Positions 1 through 6,511 of a DNA stretch of 6,511 nucleotides are shown in pieces. A program made the translations under genes and the position numbers. The stretch lies in the IMG/VR virus record IMGVR_UViG_2541047126_000018, one strand, 5' to 3'. The notes below the pieces were generated by a model, which saw only the letters and a program-made list of their open reading frames with translations, was not told where the DNA came from and did not search any database. The DNA comes from a virus. Taxonomy: Duplodnaviria; Heunggongvirae; Uroviricota; Caudoviricetes. Each line of letters begins with the position of its first letter. Position 1 is the first letter of the stretch.

Positions 1-120
1 CTTCGCGTATCCTTCCCGCGTGTGGCGGTCTATCGTTCTGATTGCCACCTTTAAGGTGTGCTCAGTCATGTCTAACGCTTTATATTTTGGCTCTGTTCTG
101 TCTCTGCGTTTTTGGGTCAT
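1..120 (-). CDS. Hypothetical protein, N-terminal 40 codons only (gene runs off the left edge)
   Basis: Minus-strand ATG at 120-118 preceded by GAGAGG about 9 nt upstream; open frame MTQKRRDRTEPKYKALDMTEHTLKVAIRTIDRHTREGYAK continues to position 1 without a stop. Not in the supplied ORF track because it is incomplete. Lies immediately after the iteron array. Confidence 0.35.
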   Translation of the reverse strand, partial: MTQKRRDRTEPKYKALDMTEHTLKVAIRTIDRHTREGYAK

Positions 121-132
121 TTCTCGCAACCT

Positions 133-322
133 CTCACTTTTTCGCCTCACTTTTTCAAGCGTCTCACTTCGTCGCAGTTGGGATTTTCGGTTTTTCTATG
201 TGTGTGTTTCATAAGTATTTTTTTACCCCTCACTTTTGAGGATGTATACAGGTCGAAAAGTGAGGGAGAGCGGGCTAATTTTGGCCCTCTTTCTATCCCC
301 CTCGCTTTTGCTCCTCACTTTT
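133..322. repeat. Iteron array with AT-rich spacer; putative origin of replication downstream of rep
   Basis: Direct copies of CTCACTTTT or close variants at 133-141, 146-154, 163-170 (CTCACTTC), 229-237, 301-309 (CTCGCTTTT), 314-322, plus an inverted copy AAAAGTGAG at 256-264 forming an inverted repeat with the 229-237 copy; AT-rich stretch about 181-226. The last copy overlaps the rep stop codon (321-323). Confidence 0.55.
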
Positions 323-1721
323 ATAGCGGCGCTACATCATCCCCATCGATACGAATAACCCCATCTTTTTCCAGCTTGTACAGCCAGCGCCGGAAGTTTT
401 TCATTTCATACCCCAGCTTTTTCATGTCATCACGTAACAGCGGGATCGTGCACTTGTCGCCGTTCTGTGTGCGTGAACGGATGCACCCCCATAGCGCGGT
501 ATGGTTTTCCGTCTTGTTCCCTGCCTCCTCGATGCGCTCCAGTTCAACAGGAGGGCGCGGATCATCCACCACCACCAGCAACGTGATTAATTCACCGTCA
601 GCGTCGGTAAAAAGCTCCACCACGCGTAAGTCATATGCGGCTTCTTTGAGTTCCTCCGCGTCCTTCATTTTGGTGCATGAGATAACCAGCGCTTCGCTTC
701 CTGCGTCCTCCCTGCGTATCCGGTATTCAGCATCCAGCGAAGCACGAAATGCACTGGAACCGCGCGCGCCTTTCGTCTCATCCTTGCCGGAATGGTGAAC
801 CACCAGCACCGTGGCCCCTGTGCGTCGTTTCAGTTCGTCACAACCACGGATAAACGCCCCCATATCACGGGAATCATTTTCATCATTCCCACCAAAGCAA
901 CGCGCCAGCGTATCCAGAATAATCATGCGTACAGGTTTACCCGTTTCCCGCTCCACCTGACGGGCAGCGATAACCATTTCATCAACATCAAGCGGGGCAG
1001 CCGGAAAGATGGGGCGGTTTACCAGATACAGATTTTTCACCTGCTCATCGTGCACAACCTCCCAGGCTTTTACACGACGCGGAACACCTATACCGCCTTC
1101 ACCAACCACATAGAGAACCGCACCATGTGCAACCCTGCGGCCTCCCCACTGGCGACCAGTGGCAACATGGCACGCCCACGATCCGGCAAGGAATGATTTA
1201 TAGGACCCGCTAGCCCCGTATATGCTGCATAGCGATACCGCCGGAATAATCCCCTTAACCACGTAATCCAGTTGCGTGTCGTATCCGGTAGATCCAACGC
1301 TCATCGGTAGCGTGGTTTTTCGCTGGTGGTTTTTTTCTTCCGCCGGCTCTTTCCCGCGCACCCGTTCCAGGTATTCGCGCCAGTTCTCCCGCATATGGCT
1401 GTGCATCCCTTCGGGGTAATAATTCGCATCAGTTACACCCGCCGCCGCCAGCTTGTGCGCAATGGCATTAATATTTGATGGCCTGATGTGGCCTGCCTTG
1501 TACAGCCGGACACAATAGCGCCCCTCGTCGATGATTCTCAGTTCTGCCAGTTCATCCAGTTGATCATCAGCCAGCACAACGGGAGGCACATTATCGCCAG
1601 CCAGTCGCCCGTCCTGTTCCTGCCACTGTTTCGCATGTGCCCAGGCATCACTACCCGCAAAAATAATGACTTCGGTCATCTTGTCGTAAGGCTGTTTTTT
1701 TAAGTTCGGTGCGCTTTTCAT
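321..1721 (-). CDS. Replication protein, RecA-fold (AAA_25 / RepA-like) helicase-type ATPase with an N-terminal domain of unassigned type
   Basis: 466-aa ORF; deviant P-loop GASGSYKS, Walker B-like VRMIILD, and VLVVHHSGKD resembling the HH..K motif of RepA/DnaB-like RecA-fold ATPases; SD AGGGG about 7 nt before the ATG; ATGA overlap with the upstream ORF; iterons immediately downstream. Family assignment is from motif recall, not a search. Confidence 0.8.
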   Translation of the reverse strand: MKSAPNLKKQPYDKMTEVIIFAGSDAWAHAKQWQEQDGRLAGDNVPPVVLADDQLDELAELRIIDEGRYCVRLYKAGHIRPSNINAIAHKLAAAGVTDANYYPEGMHSHMRENWREYLERVRGKEPAEEKNHQRKTTLPMSVGSTGYDTQLDYVVKGIIPAVSLCSIYGASGSYKSFLAGSWACHVATGRQWGGRRVAHGAVLYVVGEGGIGVPRRVKAWEVVHDEQVKNLYLVNRPIFPAAPLDVDEMVIAARQVERETGKPVRMIILDTLARCFGGNDENDSRDMGAFIRGCDELKRRTGATVLVVHHSGKDETKGARGSSAFRASLDAEYRIRREDAGSEALVISCTKMKDAEELKEAAYDLRVVELFTDADGELITLLVVVDDPRPPVELERIEEAGNKTENHTALWGCIRSRTQNGDKCTIPLLRDDMKKLGYEMKNFRRWLYKLEKDGVIRIDGDDVAPL

Positions 1722-2017
1722 TTCTTGCCCCTGAATCCGTTAACCATGGTTTTCAGCTTCTGGATGTTTGCCCGTGCCCTGGCGTTGCTGGTGGGCACGT
1801 TATGCGGCGCGGTCTGTACCAGAGAAAAATCACGCCGGAACTGATAAACAGGCATCACGCAATCATATTCGTAACCTTCACGGCGGTAGGTTACGCGCCG
1901 TTCTTCCACGCCCTTAATCATTACCGTGCCGCCGTACTGGTCGCGGTAAATATCACCGCGCGTAAATTTAGGGTGAGTGTTGCCACTGGCAGTTAAGCCA
2001 GAATATTTAAGTTTCAT
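1718..2017 (-). CDS. Hypothetical protein, 99 aa, translationally coupled to rep
   Basis: Complete ORF; GGAGA about 9 nt before the ATG at 2017; its stop overlaps the rep start (ATGA at 1718-1721). No motif recognised. Confidence 0.6.
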   Translation of the reverse strand: MKLKYSGLTASGNTHPKFTRGDIYRDQYGGTVMIKGVEERRVTYRREGYEYDCVMPVYQFRRDFSLVQTAPHNVPTSNARARANIQKLKTMVNGFRGKK

Positions 2018-2022
2018 TATTT

Positions 2023-2256
2023 TTATTCTCCGGTGTGCTGTTCTTTATATCTGTCGTGCAATAGATCTATTTCTTGCAGTTCCATTATTACAGGCTCAAG
2101 AAGCGTTATTAATGCCGTGGCAATTCTTGATTTTTGTTTGTCGCGTTCATTGTCGCCAAGTGTTTCAAGCCATATGCGCAATATTTCCATCATGTTTTCA
2201 CTGTGAGAAAGTGCAAGAAATGCGCGGTCTATTGTTTGGTGGTAAATATCACGCAT
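2023..2256 (-). CDS. Hypothetical protein, 77 aa, predicted helical
   Basis: Complete ORF; GAGGA about 8 nt before the ATG at 2256; start overlaps the stop of the upstream 154-aa ORF by 8 nt. Confidence 0.55.
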   Translation of the reverse strand: MRDIYHQTIDRAFLALSHSENMMEILRIWLETLGDNERDKQKSRIATALITLLEPVIMELQEIDLLHDRYKEQHTGE

Positions 2257-2713
2257 GGCTTACATCCTCAGGAAATTTTCTTCTATAACGCGCCTCTGCC
2301 ACATATTCCGCATAATCGGCGGCGATATTCAGTACATCAAGCCCCGTTGATTTATATTCTCTCGTGGAAAGTAAGAAAAAAGCCGCTCTAATAAGTTCTG
2401 GCATTGACGAAAGCGCATCAGCCGCATCATCAGGAACGCCGGAAAATTCCTGTTTCAGGGAATTAAAACGATCATCACGCATAACCCCCCCATTTTCACA
2501 ATCAGCAATCAGGATAGCTTTGGCCTCATTCAGCGCCGTATCAGCACTAAATTGCATGACAGCCAGTGAGTGAGGAACGAAAGCACCGGCATATTCTGTT
2601 TCGCTGGTGGCGTGCTTATGTGCCCTGTCCGCGATAACAGAAATATCAATCAGCGCGTGCATCAGCGTTTTGATGGCTTCGGCGGCTGCGTCCGGTGTGG
2701 TTTTATTGTGCAT
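2249..2713 (-). CDS. Hypothetical protein, 154 aa
   Basis: Complete ORF; AGGGGA about 7 nt before the ATG at 2713; overlaps the upstream ORF by 11 nt; position before the replication gene recalls the small genes preceding the replication gene in P4-like elements, but no homology is claimed. Confidence 0.65.
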   Translation of the reverse strand: MHNKTTPDAAAEAIKTLMHALIDISVIADRAHKHATSETEYAGAFVPHSLAVMQFSADTALNEAKAILIADCENGGVMRDDRFNSLKQEFSGVPDDAADALSSMPELIRAAFFLLSTREYKSTGLDVLNIAADYAEYVAEARYRRKFPEDVSHA

Positions 2714-2915
2714 AAAGCATCCCCTGAATATTCGTGTTAATCATTCCGGCACGTTTTGTGATTTCCTGTAATGATTCCCTTGTGGCGACAATTGCTTCAT
2801 CTGGTAAGTGGTAATTACACACCACGCGACCTTTATCCACATTGACCAGTAGCTGCCCTGTGAATTTCTCACGAAACTGAATGCGGTTAAGGTCAGTAAG
2901 TGACAGATTAATCAT
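2703..2915 (-). CDS. Hypothetical protein, 70 aa (start moved to the internal ATG at 2915)
   Basis: Track ORF 2703..2957 trimmed: the ATG at 2915-2913 has a consensus SD AGGAGGTG 4 nt upstream and sits 2 nt after the stop of the upstream ORF (ATGATTAA junction); the 2957 start has no SD and would overlap the upstream gene by 50 nt. Confidence 0.6.
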   Translation of the reverse strand: MINLSLTDLNRIQFREKFTGQLLVNVDKGRVVCNYHLPDEAIVATRESLQEITKRAGMINTNIQGMLYAQ

Positions 2916-3111
2916 GGCGCACCTCCTGACGAATACGGGCGGCAAATACAGCAACACAACCTGACGGGCAACGGCTACGCGCTTCGCGTTCCGTCCAGGC
3001 GGTTACGTGGATGATTTGAGATTCTCCGGCACTCAGGGCCAGAAAACGCCAGATGTATTTATTCAGGTTGTGCGAGTCCCGCCCTTGCGGGTGTGTGGTA
3101 TGATTTAACAT
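2908..3111 (-). CDS. Hypothetical protein, 67 aa, first gene of the replication-side operon
   Basis: Track ORF 2908..3606 trimmed to the internal ATG at 3111-3109 with GAGGT SD; the longer version would run through the divergent promoter region and the RHH gene on the other strand. Confidence 0.5.
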   Translation of the reverse strand: MLNHTTHPQGRDSHNLNKYIWRFLALSAGESQIIHVTAWTEREARSRCPSGCVAVFAARIRQEVRHD

Positions 3112-3190
3112 AGCTACCTCGATACTGTTGCTATCGTTGGTTGTTAGACGCCCTGCATGTGTGCCACCACTGCGGGGCGTTGTTATTTGG

Positions 3191-3301
3191 TGCATCGCAC
3201 CATCTGTTTTTAACCTATCAGCAAGTGAATCGCACTTCAAGCCTTTTCTCTGAATTTTTTTTGTGTATACTGAATCGCACCAACTTAGAGAGGATTCAGT
3301 A
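3191..3301. promoter_or_regulatory. Divergent promoter/operator region between the RHH gene (+) and the small-gene/rep operon (-)
   Basis: Three direct copies of the 10-mer TG(A/C)ATCGCAC at 3191-3200, 3226-3235 and 3271-3280; plus-strand -10-like TATACT at 3266-3271; candidate minus-strand promoter TTGAAG (plus 3235-3240) with 17-bp spacer to TAGGTT (plus 3212-3217); inverted repeat CTGAATC/GATTCAG (3269-3275 / 3293-3299) flanking the RHH SD. Confidence 0.4.
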
Positions 3302-3481
3302 ATGGCAACAGGTTCAACAAATAATAAGTCGCAACAGTTAAATGCCAGATTCCCGCATGATGTTGTTGCAGACTTAGAAAAAAATTTAGATGAAGGTGAA
3401 AGCAAAGCGCAATTTATAGTTACTGCCGTTAAAGGCGAAATCAAACGCCGCCAGCGCCGCAAGGCCAAAGAGCAGGAATAG
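3302..3481 (+). CDS. Ribbon-helix-helix (CopG/Arc/MetJ-type) DNA-binding regulator, 59 aa
   Basis: ATG at 3302 with SD AGAGAGGA 7 nt upstream (the track's 3263 start is a GTG without SD); the segment QLNARFPHDVVADLEKNLDEGESKAQFIVTAVKGEIKR fits the beta-strand/helix/helix RHH pattern; basic C-terminal tail; only plus-strand gene in the element. Confidence 0.65.
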   Translation: MATGSTNNKSQQLNARFPHDVVADLEKNLDEGESKAQFIVTAVKGEIKRRQRRKAKEQE

Positions 3482-3569
3482 CCCACCAGCAAGCCAGCAC
3501 ACTGAGCACATTGCCCACCAGACAGCAAATCGCTATGATGTTCGGGCTTATGTTTAGTGTTTTCCCATT

Positions 3570-3598
3570 GGCGACCGCCACAGGTCGCCTTTGTTTTA
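3570..3598 (+). terminator. Rho-independent terminator downstream of the RHH gene
   Basis: Stem GGCGACC (3570-3576) / GGTCGCC (3583-3589), loop GCCACA, followed by TTTGTTTTA (3590-3598). Confidence 0.55.
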
Positions 3599-3615
3599 TG
3601 TGTCATATGTTCCCC

Positions 3616-3840
3616 CTACGCTGCCTTACCTGAATTAATACGATCCCGGCTTTTAACCCATTCCATAACCTCGGAAAGCAGCCAACCTACTGAACGACCA
3701 CCCAGATTACGGCGTGACGGGAAATTCCCTTTTTTCTCCAGTTCGTAGCGTGTAGTGCGGCACACTCCTGTTAACTTACGGCATTCATCCTCACGGATTA
3801 CGCGATCTGATAGTGATTGAAATTGTGTATTTTGATTCAT
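3616..3840 (-). CDS. alpA: AlpA-family (MerR-like HTH) prophage transcriptional regulator / excision activator
   Basis: 74-aa ORF; segment CRKLTGVCRTTRYELEKKGNFPSRRNLGGRSVGWLLSEVMEWV matches the AlpA HTH signature (...GxSRST.Y.L...G.FP.P..LGGRSV.W...EV..W...) from memory; located downstream of a P4-type integrase. Confidence 0.8.
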   Translation of the reverse strand: MNQNTQFQSLSDRVIREDECRKLTGVCRTTRYELEKKGNFPSRRNLGGRSVGWLLSEVMEWVKSRDRINSGKAA

Positions 3841-3875
3841 AAAAAAACGTCCTCGAACGTTGCCGAACGAGGACG
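3841..3875 (-). terminator. Terminator/attenuator-like hairpin plus U-tract between the cargo gene and alpA (minus-strand sense)
   Basis: 8-bp stem CGTCCTCG (3848-3855) / CGAGGACG (3868-3875) with 12-nt loop; on the minus strand it is followed by 7 U (plus A7 at 3841-3847) and then directly by the alpA ATG (3840); the GAGGA in the 3' arm is the only SD-like element for alpA. Confidence 0.5.
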
Positions 3876-3902
3876 ATTCTAGGCGGTAGTAAAACGCCGT
3901 TT

Positions 3903-3935
3903 GTGTGATATCACACTACCAGCACGTGATATCAC
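3903..3935. promoter_or_regulatory. Paired palindromes, candidate operator in the cargo-alpA intergenic region
   Basis: Perfect 14-bp palindrome GTGTGATATCACAC (3903-3916) and second copy of the core GTGATATCAC (3926-3935), the latter overlapping the cargo stop codon; minus-strand -10-like TAGAAT (plus 3876-3881) nearby. Confidence 0.4.
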
Positions 3936-4705
3936 TTTTTACGTTTTTGTTGAGATTCACGCCCCAAATACTTTTGCCATGTCTGCCAATGTGTTTTTGG
4001 AAATTCTATCCCTCTGGATGCAGCTATAGAATCAATTAAATCTGCTATTTTAGGTAATGATTCCGTGTCCAGGTCTACATCACCCATTTCTGGAATAAGT
4101 TTAATTAAAGAGTAAATAACCTCATTCCTTTTTGACGATGCTTTTGGGCTATCTTCTGTTATCTTCGGGAAGTCTCCCGTATTTTTTATATTATCTAAAT
4201 CACTAGCCATCACACACAAATAGTTAACATCAAATTCATAACCACCCTTACAAAAAACATACATGAGATTATCATCACCATACTTATTCGTAAGATGAGA
4301 ACATTTTATATATTGTCTCATGCTAAATTCGACATCAGCAAAAACATATGCCGGAGTATAATAAAACCCTGATAAGCTGCTAACATAATAACATTTGATA
4401 GAATTCCCTACAGGACCAATAATGGCACTATCTAAAAATTCAGTGTCACCAGTTAAACCAACTGTAAAATTACTTCCAAAAACAGCAGATTCATCATTGA
4501 AAGGATATTTTATTAATTCTTCCTCATTACAACCATTGATAAAATGACATAATGAAAAATTGAATTTTTTAGCATCAATTTTTGGTATATATACAGAAAT
4601 ATTAAGAGCACCTATATATGCGTAATGATAAAGATCTTTTATTGCACAGCCTAACTTTTCTGCCGCTTCAGGTAACGGATAATAGAGTCTTTTAGGTAAT
4701 TTCAT
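3932..4705 (-). CDS. Hypothetical low-GC cargo protein, 257 aa, translationally coupled to the integrase; candidate accessory/defence gene
   Basis: Complete ORF; ATG at 4705-4703 overlaps the int stop TGA (4704-4702) as ATGA, with SD GAAGGTGG inside the int 3' end; GC by eye about 30-35 percent versus about 50 percent in int and rep; no catalytic motif recognised; terminator follows. Confidence 0.8.
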   Translation of the reverse strand: MKLPKRLYYPLPEAAEKLGCAIKDLYHYAYIGALNISVYIPKIDAKKFNFSLCHFINGCNEEELIKYPFNDESAVFGSNFTVGLTGDTEFLDSAIIGPVGNSIKCYYVSSLSGFYYTPAYVFADVEFSMRQYIKCSHLTNKYGDDNLMYVFCKGGYEFDVNYLCVMASDLDNIKNTGDFPKITEDSPKASSKRNEVIYSLIKLIPEMGDVDLDTESLPKIADLIDSIAASRGIEFPKTHWQTWQKYLGRESQQKRKK

Positions 4706-5925
4706 TTGGCCACCTTCAGCATAACAATATTTTCATGATTTCCAGCCAGCACATCGAGGCGCTCAACCCATAGATTAAGAGCGTCACGTTTTGCATCAAG
4801 ATAACGGGAGTGATTATAGACTCGTTGCATTCCTGGCAACTGGTGCGCGGTAAGCTGCTCCACAACATGCGGTTCCACGCCTAAATCGTTCAGCATCGTT
4901 GTAAACGTGTGCCGGATGTCGTGCAACGTCCAGGGGGCTTGATTAATGCGTCTGTGTGCCGTTCTTCCGTACTCTGATACGGATGATTGCCCTTTCAGTT
5001 CTCCGAGCAATAAGCCCGTGTGCCTGTTCTGCTCCACCAGCTTCATGACAAACGGCAAGATCGCTTCCGGTATTGGCCTGAATATTGCTACCTTCGTTTT
5101 GCTGTGTTCTTTCGGCACGGTCCAGAGCATTTCTTTAAAATCCCATTCCTGGACCTCAGAGCGTCTTAGCTCAGTGGTACGACATCCGAAGACAATCAGG
5201 AGGCGAATCAGGGCGCTGTAGTACGGTGGGTAAATTTTTTCATCAAGGGCGCGTAGTAATTCCCCAAGCTCCTTGTTTGTTAGTACGCGCTCGCTTATTT
5301 CTGCTTTTTTCCCAACATCACCGACAACCATATCATCAAGAACGTTGCTGATTGCGTATCGTCGTTTTCGGCAGTACTTAAGCGCCTGTTTGCATACCTG
5401 TAGCAAAAATCCGGCTGATACCGGATTACGCTTAGCAAGCTGGTCAAAACAGGCCAGCCAGTGGCGTAGCTCGCATTTTTCCAGTGGCATAGCTCCAATC
5501 TGGCTAATTATGTGTTTATTGATCCGGCTTTTCAGTGATTCGTAGTCAGTGCGCTTTTCCTTTGCGTACGATTCAAGCCAGTAAGTGAGCGCTTCCTTAA
5601 CCGTCACGGGGGCTAACGCGTCCTGTACAGCATGATTAAGTTCATAGCGCGGATTTTTCCCCTCAGCCAGCCATGCGCGACATTGCGACGCTTTTTCCCT
5701 GGCTGCTTTCAGGCTCAAATCTGGATAATTTCCCAGCCTCAGACGTTCAGGTGATATCTGCCTACCAGTTCCGGACCTGTAAGTGAAATACCAGGTTAAC
5801 AGGCCATTGGTTGAATGCCTTACGCTAAGGTTGCCACCATCATTAAAAAAGGTGCTTTTTGTGGTTGGTGATCCGCTTAATTTTCGTAAAAGAGTGTCGC
5901 TAAGTCTATGAATTGCCCTGCTCAT
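4702..5925 (-). CDS. int: Tyrosine recombinase / integrase, P4 family (DUF4102-type N-terminal arm-binding domain)
   Basis: 407-aa ORF; N-terminal NDGGNLSV...LGNYPDLSLKAAREKA matches the DGGGLYL...LG.YP..SL..AR pattern of P4-type integrases; box I-like CRTTELRRSEV; box II LHDIRHTF...LTAHQ...RVYNHSRY with the catalytic Tyr candidate. Confidence 0.93.
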   Translation of the reverse strand: MSRAIHRLSDTLLRKLSGSPTTKSTFFNDGGNLSVRHSTNGLLTWYFTYRSGTGRQISPERLRLGNYPDLSLKAAREKASQCRAWLAEGKNPRYELNHAVQDALAPVTVKEALTYWLESYAKEKRTDYESLKSRINKHIISQIGAMPLEKCELRHWLACFDQLAKRNPVSAGFLLQVCKQALKYCRKRRYAISNVLDDMVVGDVGKKAEISERVLTNKELGELLRALDEKIYPPYYSALIRLLIVFGCRTTELRRSEVQEWDFKEMLWTVPKEHSKTKVAIFRPIPEAILPFVMKLVEQNRHTGLLLGELKGQSSVSEYGRTAHRRINQAPWTLHDIRHTFTTMLNDLGVEPHVVEQLTAHQLPGMQRVYNHSRYLDAKRDALNLWVERLDVLAGNHENIVMLKVAK

Positions 5926-5946
5926 GTTTCGTGTTTCCGGTCATCA

Positions 5947-5974
5947 AAATTAACTACACCATTGACTACACCGT
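5947..5974 (+). repeat. Direct repeat A1 (AAATTAACTACACCATTGACTACACCGT) containing two ACTACACC octamers 12 bp apart
   Basis: Read directly; ACTACACC at 5953-5960 and 5965-5972; near-identical copy at 6179-6206. Confidence 0.8.
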
Positions 5975-5988
5975 GCATCGTACAAGGG

Positions 5989-6236
5989 CGAACTGTGACG
6001 AACAAGGGCGAACAAGAAAAACGAAATTATCCTTTATAATCATAGAAATAAATTAGATGCCCACACCATGACGAACACCCACGAACACTAACTGATAAAT
6101 AACTATCATTTATAACATTTCATTGATTAGTCTTTATTTTTCACTATGTTACAAATAACAACTCCGTCAAAAACAGCGAAATTAACTACACCATTAACTA
6201 CACCGTTTCACGAACAATATCGAACAACCACGAACA
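5989..6236 (+). repeat. Eight same-orientation CGAAC(A/T) sites in three clusters with 10-bp phasing; candidate integrase arm-type sites or iterons
   Basis: CGAACT at 5989; CGAACA at 5999, 6009, 6072, 6082, 6211, 6221, 6231; within each cluster the spacing is exactly 10 bp; a 12-mer ACAAGGGCGAAC is duplicated at 5982 and 6002. Confidence 0.75.
6179..6206 (+). repeat. Direct repeat A2 (AAATTAACTACACCATTAACTACACCGT), second copy of A1, 232 bp downstream
   Basis: Read directly; ACTACACC at 6185-6192 and 6197-6204; followed by the CGAACA triplet at 6211-6236, the same arrangement as A1 plus its triplet. Confidence 0.8.
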
Positions 6237-6395
6237 AAGATCAACACGCTTTAACCGTTATCATTTTCCGGCCATCCGTTATGAAGCTGGTGGATGTTCC
6301 CCGATATGGGTATCCCCACCTACCTGGCTTTTTTTCCGGTTAAATGTTAATCAGGCTGGTGGCCTTTACATACCCTTGATCACGGTAATGATGAT

Positions 6396-6511
6396 TCAGG
6401 TGCGTACCTTTTCCCCAGTGGGGTAAAAGCTCCAACCGTAACGATGTTCGTTGTGGTTGCCTTGATGGTCTGCGTGGTCATTATGACCATTCAGAATTTG
6501 AAGGGTGATGT
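6396..6511 (-). CDS. Possible 3' end of a flanking gene (His/Asn/Asp-rich C-terminus); strand ambiguous
   Basis: Minus-strand frame is open from the window edge to TGA at 6398-6396, giving ...ITLQILNGHNDHADHQGNHNEHRYGWSFYPTGEKVRT; the antisense plus frame from ATG 6444 gives a hydrophobic MFVVVALMVCVVIMTIQNLKGD with no convincing SD. Only one can be real. Confidence 0.25.
   Translation of the reverse strand, partial: ITLQILNGHNDHADHQGNHNEHRYGWSFYPTGEKVRT

Follow-up and report, generated by a model that had tools for sequence, protein, structure and literature searches.

The array of short repeats at positions 133-322, together with the 3' end of the adjoining rep gene, very probably serves a phage-inducible chromosomal island (PICI), a type of phage satellite, as its vegetative replication origin. 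It lies in a 6,511-nucleotide stretch of viral DNA (IMG/VR record IMGVR_UViG_2541047126_000018), which is referred to below as the window. The assignment draws on the published organisation of PICI origins, on the conservation of the array among relatives of the Rep protein and on the co-variation of the repeats with a single Rep residue. An origin directly downstream of rep had been proposed before in a sequence-only reading, against which the present results are set where they bear on it.

Anatomy of the repeat array

A search of both strands locates the 9-mer CTCACTTTT exactly on the plus strand at 133, 146, 229 and 314, and on the minus strand at 256-264, the latter being the single inverted copy. 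A copy with one mismatch, CTCGCTTTT, is found at 301-309 and one with two mismatches, CTCACTTCG, at 163-171. The sequence-only reading had described six direct copies and one inverted copy; this count stands, with four of the six direct copies being exact. The 10-mer AAAAGTGAGG, read on the rep strand, is a better repeat unit than the 9-mer. Three of the seven copies in the window differ from it, those at 300-309 and 163-171 by internal mismatches and that at 133-141 by the absence of the final G (Table 1).

The iterons are arranged in a rep-proximal set (228-322) and a distal set (133-171) with an AT-rich stretch between them. The earlier claim that the array overlaps the end of rep holds: the stop codon TAA occupies 321-323, so that iteron 1 has two bases in common with it. 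Likewise, the AT-rich spacer placed within the array by that reading is clearly recognizable from its GC content (Table 1), and it is a candidate DNA-unwinding element. Iteron 3 represents the left arm, and positions 227-237 the right arm, of an 11-nt inverted repeat that is 100% complementary, the arms being separated by 18 nt. As single-stranded DNA this pair can fold with -9.6 kcal/mol (z -3.9), which we regard as a mere consequence of two iterons facing each other. An intrinsic terminator was ruled out for the inverted pair because no T-run follows it.

Two further features were absent from the sequence-only reading. A central palindrome, TGTATACA, is placed halfway from the inverted copy to the direct one at 228-237. 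At the far end of the array, the last repeat supplies the Shine-Dalgarno-like sequence of the next gene, GAGAGG, which spans 130-135 and belongs in part to iteron 7.

Table 1. Features of the window that bear on the proposed origin.
Feature	Position	Strand	Description
Next gene, 5' part	1..120	-	83-aa hypothetical protein; ATG at 118-120
Iteron 7	133..141	-	exact 9-mer AAAAGTGAG, then AGG
Iteron 6	145..154	-	exact AAAAGTGAGG
Iteron 5	163..171	-	CGAAGTGAG, 2 mismatches to the 9-mer; opens the distal set
AT-rich spacer	171..226	.	34% GC vs 46% for the window; 30% at 181-220; candidate unwinding element
Iteron 4	228..237	-	exact, direct; right arm of the inverted pair
Central palindrome TGTATACA	243..250	.	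between two inward-facing iterons (256-265 and 228-237)
Iteron 3	256..265	+	exact, inverted; AAAAGTGAGG readable on the plus strand
Iteron 2	300..309	-	AAAAGCGAGG, 1 mismatch; 13 bp past iteron 1
Iteron 1	313..322	-	AAAAGTGAGG on the rep strand, exact; shares 2 nt with the TAA stop codon
rep	321..1721	-	466 aa, stop TAA 321-323; predicted initiator-helicase
Winged-helix domain coding region	324..524	-	residues 400-466; predicted, AlphaFold2 and Foldseek
Codon of Asn442 (AAC)	396..398	-	residue just before H3, in "EMK-N-FRRWL"
DUF4222 gene	1718..2017	-	stop overlaps rep start
Phage_AlpA regulator	3616-3840	-	Pfam
Tyrosine integrase	4702-5925	-	Pfam

The occurrence of the repeats can be compared with expectation both within and outside the window. 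At no more than one mismatch, the 9-mer has 8 matches in the window, as compared to a mean of 1.84 in dinucleotide-preserving shuffles of the window (n = 200), none of which contained as many. A count of the 9-mer elsewhere, which the sequence-only reading had proposed as a check on its restriction to this locus, returned one exact match against 0.68 expected, with no clustering, for an 88-kb sample of other E. coli sequence.

Other signals around the array are sparse. The DnaA box TTATNCACA, allowing up to one mismatch, is not found in 1-400; its only matches in the window are at 2707, 2833, 3262 and 5720, and their number is below the shuffle expectation. No IHF consensus was found in 1-400, and a search of the whole window against Rfam at E values up to 1 returned nothing in that region; the lone Rfam match, a snoRNA at 4019, was judged to be due to chance. 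A scan of 1-500 yielded no sigma-70-like promoter site. The next gene starts just past the array, on the minus strand, as had been stated, and the claim that no terminator intervenes is upheld in that no minus-strand terminator-like site occurs in 1-500. One such site on the plus strand was set aside because it is on the wrong strand for these genes. It is plausible from this arrangement that transcription reads through the origin, which is embedded in an array of same-strand genes.

The island and its Rep protein

The genes for an integrase, Phage_AlpA, DUF4222 and Rep, as identified with Pfam, are all on the minus strand, and this gene content supports the window being a PICI-type island. 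PICIs combine an integrase and an AlpA-type activator with an operon running in one direction, a length of ~8-15 kb and a specific att site. Positions 1-1721 are 100% identical to an island of E. coli O157:H7 (L001), in which the region 3' of the origin encodes the 83-aa ORF, ssb, perC, a capsid gene, a decoration gene and terS; the order of 83-aa gene, ssb and perC is that of full-length islands. An identification of this O157:H7 island with EcCIEDL933, a capsid-forming PICI, was dropped: the island is ~11 kb long and has no portal or large terminase annotated. Over positions 1-3051 the window is 99.6% identical to EcCI042, an 11-kb PICI at tqsA, with the origin matching at 206/206 positions and Rep at 463/466. 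Beyond 3051, in the int region, identity falls to 79%. Fillol-Salom et al. 2018 (ISME J, PMC6092414) catalogue EcCI042 as a PICI of E. coli 042 in their Table S1, and Fig. S10 of that study includes its Pri-Rep in a comparison of four E. coli alleles.

The window as one piece is present in no complete E. coli genome, the best match covering 70% of it, and its int-proximal half represents a different mosaic. The rep-ori part is far more widespread. It occurs at ≥99% identity in 370 of 5,426 complete E. coli genomes, many O157:H7 strains included, and genomes having any origin match have it in a median of one place. All island variants fetched from E. coli, Salmonella or Enterobacter have a DUF4222 gene upstream of rep, whichever Rep allele is present.

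Rep is predicted to consist of an N-terminal module (~1-130), a helicase core (148-315) and a C-terminal winged helix (~400-466). The only Pfam match is AAA_25 (PF13481) at residues 148-315 (E 2.5e-43), and the core is similar to the RecA-fold protein RepA of RSF1010 (PDB 1g8y, E 0.005); matching records carry the annotation 'helicase RepA family protein'. No Toprim, Zn-ribbon or D5 domain was found in Rep with Pfam, and neither the N-terminal module nor the 257-aa ORF has a match in Pfam, NCBIfam or PADLOC. An alignment of 29 Rep variants displays three modules that are shuffled between alleles. Relatives of Rep in Xenorhabdus and Pectobacterium additionally carry Zn-ribbon and Toprim primase domains. 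Among the window ORFs none of the RepC type, the RepB' type or another replication protein family was detected.

The AlphaFold2 model of full-length Rep is poor (pLDDT 63.9 overall, with residues 311-394 below 50), although over residues 400-466 the pLDDT reaches ~75-92 per 10-residue block, and a model of the C-terminal domain only has a mean pLDDT of 85.9. Three helices and then a beta-hairpin are predicted for this region, and the third helix, H3 (443-452), would serve as the recognition helix of the winged helix. Foldseek matches to the domain are mostly winged-helix or related helix-turn-helix nucleic-acid binders, among them LexA-DNA, IdeR/DtxR-DNA, ORC and DnaD-N, with TM scores up to 0.77 and E values above 0.06; such weak E values are expected for a domain of only 75 residues. 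A Foldseek search with the full-length model returned only weak RecA, RadA and DnaB-type matches together with noise, owing to the low quality of the prediction beyond the core.

Conservation of the layout and co-variation with Rep residue 442

One genome per species was scanned, and Rep relatives with 49-72% identity were found to be encoded at 80 loci, in hosts ranging from Xenorhabdus to Pectobacterium, Serratia, Morganella and Pantoea; the analyses below use 79-89 loci. In ~80 relatives the array is found immediately 3' of rep, with the first iteron at the rep stop. Within 345 bp past the end of rep, 79 loci contain the core A[AG]GTGNGG at a density of 11.7 per kb, as compared to 0.19 per kb in the remaining 531 kb, a ~60-fold enrichment 3' of rep. 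The offsets of the repeats are conserved as well, with direct copies at ~0 and +13, an inverted copy at ~+55, a direct copy at ~+83, an AT-rich stretch and then direct copies at ~+140 to +190, and this layout is reproduced in an alignment of 11 loci. This is evidence that the origin layout is conserved across Enterobacterales for Reps of the RepA type.

The central palindrome belongs to the conserved part of the layout. Its TATA columns are invariant in the 11-locus alignment, and its centre is the nearly invariant TGTATAYA. Of 89 loci, 70 have the pattern YRTATAYR between +40 and +110, whereas 0.009 would be expected per 70 bp. We found no description of a conserved central palindrome in the literature text searchable here.

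The iteron sequence itself differs between groups of relatives. The form AAAAGTGAGG is shared by the window and Xenorhabdus, AAGTGGGGA and AAGTGGGGGA are found in Pantoea, Pectobacterium, Serratia and Morganella, and AAGTGCGGCA in Kosakonia, Leclercia and Phytobacter. A homologous rep-iteron module with an S-class Rep, AAGTGCGGCA iterons and a CTGTATACA centre is also carried, along with int, capsid and terminase genes, by a 16,971-bp circular K. pneumoniae record. This record is consistent with an excised, replicating satellite, which we take as suggestive only.

The variable base of the iterons is tracked, with no clear exception, by Rep residue 442, which directly precedes the predicted recognition helix. 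Considering just the loci with a clear majority base, the pairs over the whole origin are N-A in 25/25, H-G in 10/10, K-G in 29/29 and S-C in 7/7 cases (71/71 in sum), and over the proximal half N-A in 24/24, H-G in 13/13, K-G in 31/31 and S-C in 8/8 (76/76 in sum). Fitch parsimony, on a tree built from the last 330 Rep residues with residue 442 masked, requires at least 7-8 joint switches of residue and base.

A prediction set in advance held for the loci P0004 (H) and P0047 (N), which have 9 GTGGGG and 10 GTGAGG iterons, respectively. The 75-aa C-termini of these two Reps are identical except for H versus N at 442, and the last 225 nt of their rep genes differ by one non-synonymous and ~15 synonymous changes. 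A second predicted pair agrees in the proximal half, with 9 G-type copies in P0091 (H) and an A-type proximal set in P0086 (N). The distal set of P0086 is G-type, and from its sequence this origin is a recombinant. A G-type distal set accompanies an N-type Rep in L092, and the mixed repeats of L084 match their own Rep in part. Since the origins of L092 and L084 are partly mismatched, the distal set may be dispensable, or these islands may be impaired.

Linkage contributes to the association between residue and base because codon 442 is only ~75 bp from the first iteron. The co-variation is hence best regarded as strong circumstantial support for Rep reading the repeats and not as independent proof of contact. 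We lean slightly toward a more specific reading of these alignments, in which, throughout this RepA-type family, one residue capping the recognition helix at its N-terminus (Asn442 in this Rep) sets the base read at position 6 of AAGTG[N]GG (Asn-A, His/Lys-G, Ser-C), and in which islands would repeatedly have switched specificity by one residue along with a concerted change of 7-10 iterons. If true, such switches would have given rise to mutually orthogonal Rep-ori pairs, able to coexist in one cell, and the substitution N442H would retarget Rep to GTGGGG origins, yielding simple designable orthogonal replicons.

Known origins, alternative roles and significance

The sequence-only reading regarded the array as the standard rep-ori arrangement of PICIs, and this is in keeping with both the published layout (PMC6092414) and the near-identity to EcCI042 over 1-3051. 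In Gram-negative PICIs the origin is located immediately 3' of rep and comprises two iteron sets around an AT-rich region, in all PICIs identified in that study (PMC6092414). The rep-ori cassette of EcCICFT073 maintains a temperature-sensitive plasmid, for which both rep and the origin are needed (PMC6092414). EcCICFT073 resembles the window in its order of DUF4222, rep, origin, small ORF, ssb and perC, and in an origin 3' of rep in which iterons, some of them inverted, flank an AT-rich stretch; its array is a 288-bp intergenic region after rep. The two Reps have only approximately their first 122 residues in common, at 62% identity. In contrast to the RepA-like RecA-fold core of the window Rep, however, that of EcCICFT073 contains D5_N, DUF5906 (SF3 helicase) and Pox_D5, and its iterons are CTGTCTACC/GGTAGAYA instead of AAAAGTGAGG. 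EcCICFT073, the example tested functionally, is therefore a positional analogue with a different Rep-ori pair. The PICI Rep-ori module is reportedly also defined by Ubeda 2007. Searches of literature text for the iteron sequences returned unrelated papers only; the iterons in Fig. 2a of PMC6092414 are given as an image, not as text.

Among other satellites, SaPIs have Reps that recognise their iterons with a C-terminal winged helix and whose helicase is characterised as self-loading (Qiao et al. 2022, PMC9371898). As in the window, where the winged helix is predicted, initiator and helicase of SaPIbov1, SaPI1 and SaPI5 are parts of a single protein with the winged helix at its C-terminus, and the origin with its AT-rich centre follows right after rep. 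SaPI iterons are opposed on the two sides of this centre, which the window matches only in part because 256-265 and 228-237 are both rep-proximal of the AT-rich stretch. SaPI iterons are also shorter (5-6 nt versus ~10 nt), the host phylum differs, and SaPI Reps are AAA+ proteins in or near superfamily 3 with 3'-5' polarity, unlike the RSF1010 RepA-like RecA-fold core of the window Rep. Judging by published work on RSF1010 RepA, the window Rep would travel 5'-3'.

In the P4 alpha protein, a winged helix is joined to an SF3 helicase and to a primase of the DnaG type (PMC2777425), and P4 and PICIs have been argued to have evolved independently (Fillol-Salom et al., PMC6092414). Both P4 and the window island are satellites of temperate enterobacterial phages, and alpha resembles the window Rep in uniting a helicase and a C-terminal origin-binding winged helix (predicted for the window) in one protein. 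The Rep relatives of Xenorhabdus and Pectobacterium, with their Zn-ribbon and Toprim domains, match the three-function layout of alpha, whereas the window Rep lacks both an SF3 core and any primase domain. P4 also has a second, distant cluster, crr, several kb away; no second iteron cluster was found when the window and the full O157:H7 island were searched. The sequence TGTTCACC, the P4 type I iteron, is without a match in the window, in line with the earlier statement that the two iterons differ.

RSF1010 (IncQ) shares with the window a homologous RepA helicase core and an origin built of iterons. In RSF1010, origin recognition is performed by a separate RepC, and priming by RepB' at ssi sites. 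The window differs in that a predicted winged helix forms part of the helicase polypeptide, and genes for RepC and RepB are absent. The classical iteron plasmids pPS10, F, RK2 and R6K likewise have winged-helix initiators and direct repeats beside an AT-rich unwinding element. Their origins contain DnaA boxes and require DnaA as well as DnaB-DnaC loading; in contrast, the window has no DnaA-box or IHF consensus in 1-400, and its initiator carries its own helicase.

Several other roles of the repeats have to be weighed against that of an origin. Rep might bind them while the array serves mainly copy control or incompatibility (handcuffing) or autoregulation of the operon, with strand opening taking place elsewhere in the island. 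Iteron plasmids in general use the same sites for initiation and control, the array is located inside an operon and extends into the ribosome-binding site of the gene that follows, and L092 tolerates a distal set unmatched to its own Rep. We nevertheless consider a mainly regulatory role unlikely, as an AT-rich core between opposed iterons is the layout published for PICI origins, no second cluster exists in the window or the remainder of the O157:H7 island, and deletion of the equivalent region in EcCICFT073 reduced plasmid maintenance (PMC6092414). Still less probable is that the repeats are operators for AlpA, PerC or the 83-aa protein, or part of a promoter for the ssb-perC-capsid module. 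Such a role would fit an array directly upstream of the start of the next gene, but not the absence of a sigma-70-like promoter from 1-500, the tracking of a Rep residue and not of another protein, or the retention of the array where the downstream gene differs (L084, L087, L091, L093).

A packaging signal (a pac/cos-type TerS site) or ribosome standby sites on the mRNA appear very improbable, even though related islands encode a small terminase and AAAAGTGAGG includes a Shine-Dalgarno-like GAGG. The S-class iteron AAGTGCGGCA has no Shine-Dalgarno similarity and yet the same layout, one copy runs in the opposite direction, co-variation links the repeats to the Rep winged helix, and the cos sites of EcCICFT073 are described apart from the origin, in a supplementary figure (Fillol-Salom et al., PMC6092414). 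The lowest probability of all, practically nil, is left for a cluster arising by chance or as a low-complexity artefact, for which nothing speaks except the short repeat unit. The shuffled windows, the enrichment at the same position in 79 loci and the preservation of the origin in 370 complete E. coli genomes already refute it, and on these sequence comparisons chance is excluded.

With the array taken as the origin, the following course of initiation can be envisaged. Upon induction, the AlpA-dependent rep operon would be transcribed through the origin, and the C-terminal winged helix of Rep would bind the AAAAGTGAGG iterons. These fall into three groups: two tandem copies at the stop codon on the proximal side, two that face each other across TGTATACA, and the tandem copies of the distal set. 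Rep oligomers on both sides might then melt the 34% GC spacer or, instead, the TATA-containing palindrome. The RepA-like RecA-fold helicase of Rep would load itself on the opened strands independently of DnaA, and the SSB of the island, encoded two genes downstream of rep, would coat the single strands. Primers would have to come from the host (DnaG) or the helper phage because this Rep allele is devoid of Zn-ribbon and Toprim domains.

As a kind of element, this origin is already known, given that the same sequence is present in a catalogued PICI and that its organisation has been published, so that its confirmation mainly provides a precise annotation. What is added here is the base-level annotation of the seven iterons, the central TGTATACA, the AT-rich core and the predicted Rep winged helix, together with the conserved layout in RepA-type relatives, including the central palindrome, and the putative residue-base specificity rule. 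This rule is cheap to test and might find use in building orthogonal replicons. For the island, the origin would allow amplification once a helper phage induces it, and thereby underlie its high-frequency transfer. The residue-base rule, in turn, would account for the absence of cross-talk among the origins of related satellites.

Composition of the island and of a probable episomal relative

The window is a mosaic. Its first 3,051 nt (1-3051) are 99.6% identical to EcCI042, a catalogued E. coli PICI (Fillol-Salom et al. 2018), and the int gene carried within the remaining stretch (3052-6511) shares only 79% identity with that of EcCI042. As a single piece, the whole window was found in no complete E. 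coli genome, and no tRNA gene is present in it. A 257-aa ORF located next to int is without a match in Pfam, PHROGs and PADLOC, and its sole match among the fetched loci is a partial one (43%) in a Kosakonia locus. The N-terminus of this ORF resembles an excisionase or AlpA-type helix-turn-helix, and we consider it a candidate accessory or regulatory gene particular to the mosaic of the window.

Among the related loci is a K. pneumoniae record (L095; CP018459.1, 1-16971) whose depositors describe it as a circular, non-mobilizable plasmid of 17 kb. It encodes int, a DNA-binding protein, a Rep of the S class (named by residue 442), capsid, a head-tail adaptor and terminase subunits, and its Rep is accompanied by AAGTGCGGCA iterons. 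The record appears to represent a PICI-like, capsid-forming satellite in excised form, assembled as an episome.

Coordinates of the features discussed
Feature	Location	Strand	Remarks
257-aa ORF	window 3932-4705	(-)	between int and alpA; stop overlaps int start
DUF4222 gene	window 1718-2017	(-)	overlaps rep start (ATGA overlap)
Rep N-terminal module, residues 1-130	window 1332-1721	(-)	EcCICFT073 counterpart L002:5242-5610
Central palindrome YRTATAYR, TGTATACA in window	window 243-250		midway between two inward-facing iterons; equivalent position in L003-L095
Shine-Dalgarno-like GAGAGG, supplied by last iteron	window 130-135	(-)	for 83-aa downstream gene
Start codon of 83-aa downstream gene	window 118-120	(-)	
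Partly matching origin, P0086 island	L092:2607-2830		
Partly matching origin, P0013 island	L084:2916-3330		

The N-terminus of Rep and the genes flanking rep

The first ~122 residues of the RepA-type Rep share 62% identity with the N-terminus of the EcCICFT073 Pri-Rep, but beyond this point the latter continues as an SF3/D5-type helicase that is unrelated to the Rep of the window. No Pfam family covers the shared module, for which an alternating beta-alpha fold is predicted. In the Xenorhabdus and Pectobacterium relatives it is replaced by Zn-ribbon and Toprim primase domains, and the module may serve to recruit a host or helper primase.

Directly 5' of rep, the DUF4222 gene is found in all fetched E. 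coli, Salmonella and Enterobacter island variants, for RepA-type and SF3-type Reps alike, and looks like a fixed component of the replication module. On the other side of rep, the last iteron doubles as a Shine-Dalgarno-like element, and in several relatives the last GTGAGGA is followed almost at once by ATG; the origin repeats therefore overlap the translation start signal.

A central palindrome and partly mismatched origins

Between the inward-facing iterons, the YRTATAYR palindrome occurs in 70 of the 89 related loci, against 0.009 expected per 70 bp, independently of the iteron variant that a locus uses. It is missing in the EcCICFT073 origin, and the searchable literature text yielded no description of it. 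The palindrome could mark where melting begins, or it could be contacted by a region of Rep other than the winged helix.

Two islands carry origins that only partly match their Rep. Since the proximal iterons of L092, on the rep side of the AT-rich core, are A-type (GTGAGG) and its distal set is G-type (GTGGGG), next to an Asn-type Rep, the arrangement of repeats suggests a recombination breakpoint within the core. The L084 origin contains a mixture of GTGAGG, GTGGGG and CTGAGG copies. One possibility is that the distal set is not essential; another is that these two islands are impaired in their replication.
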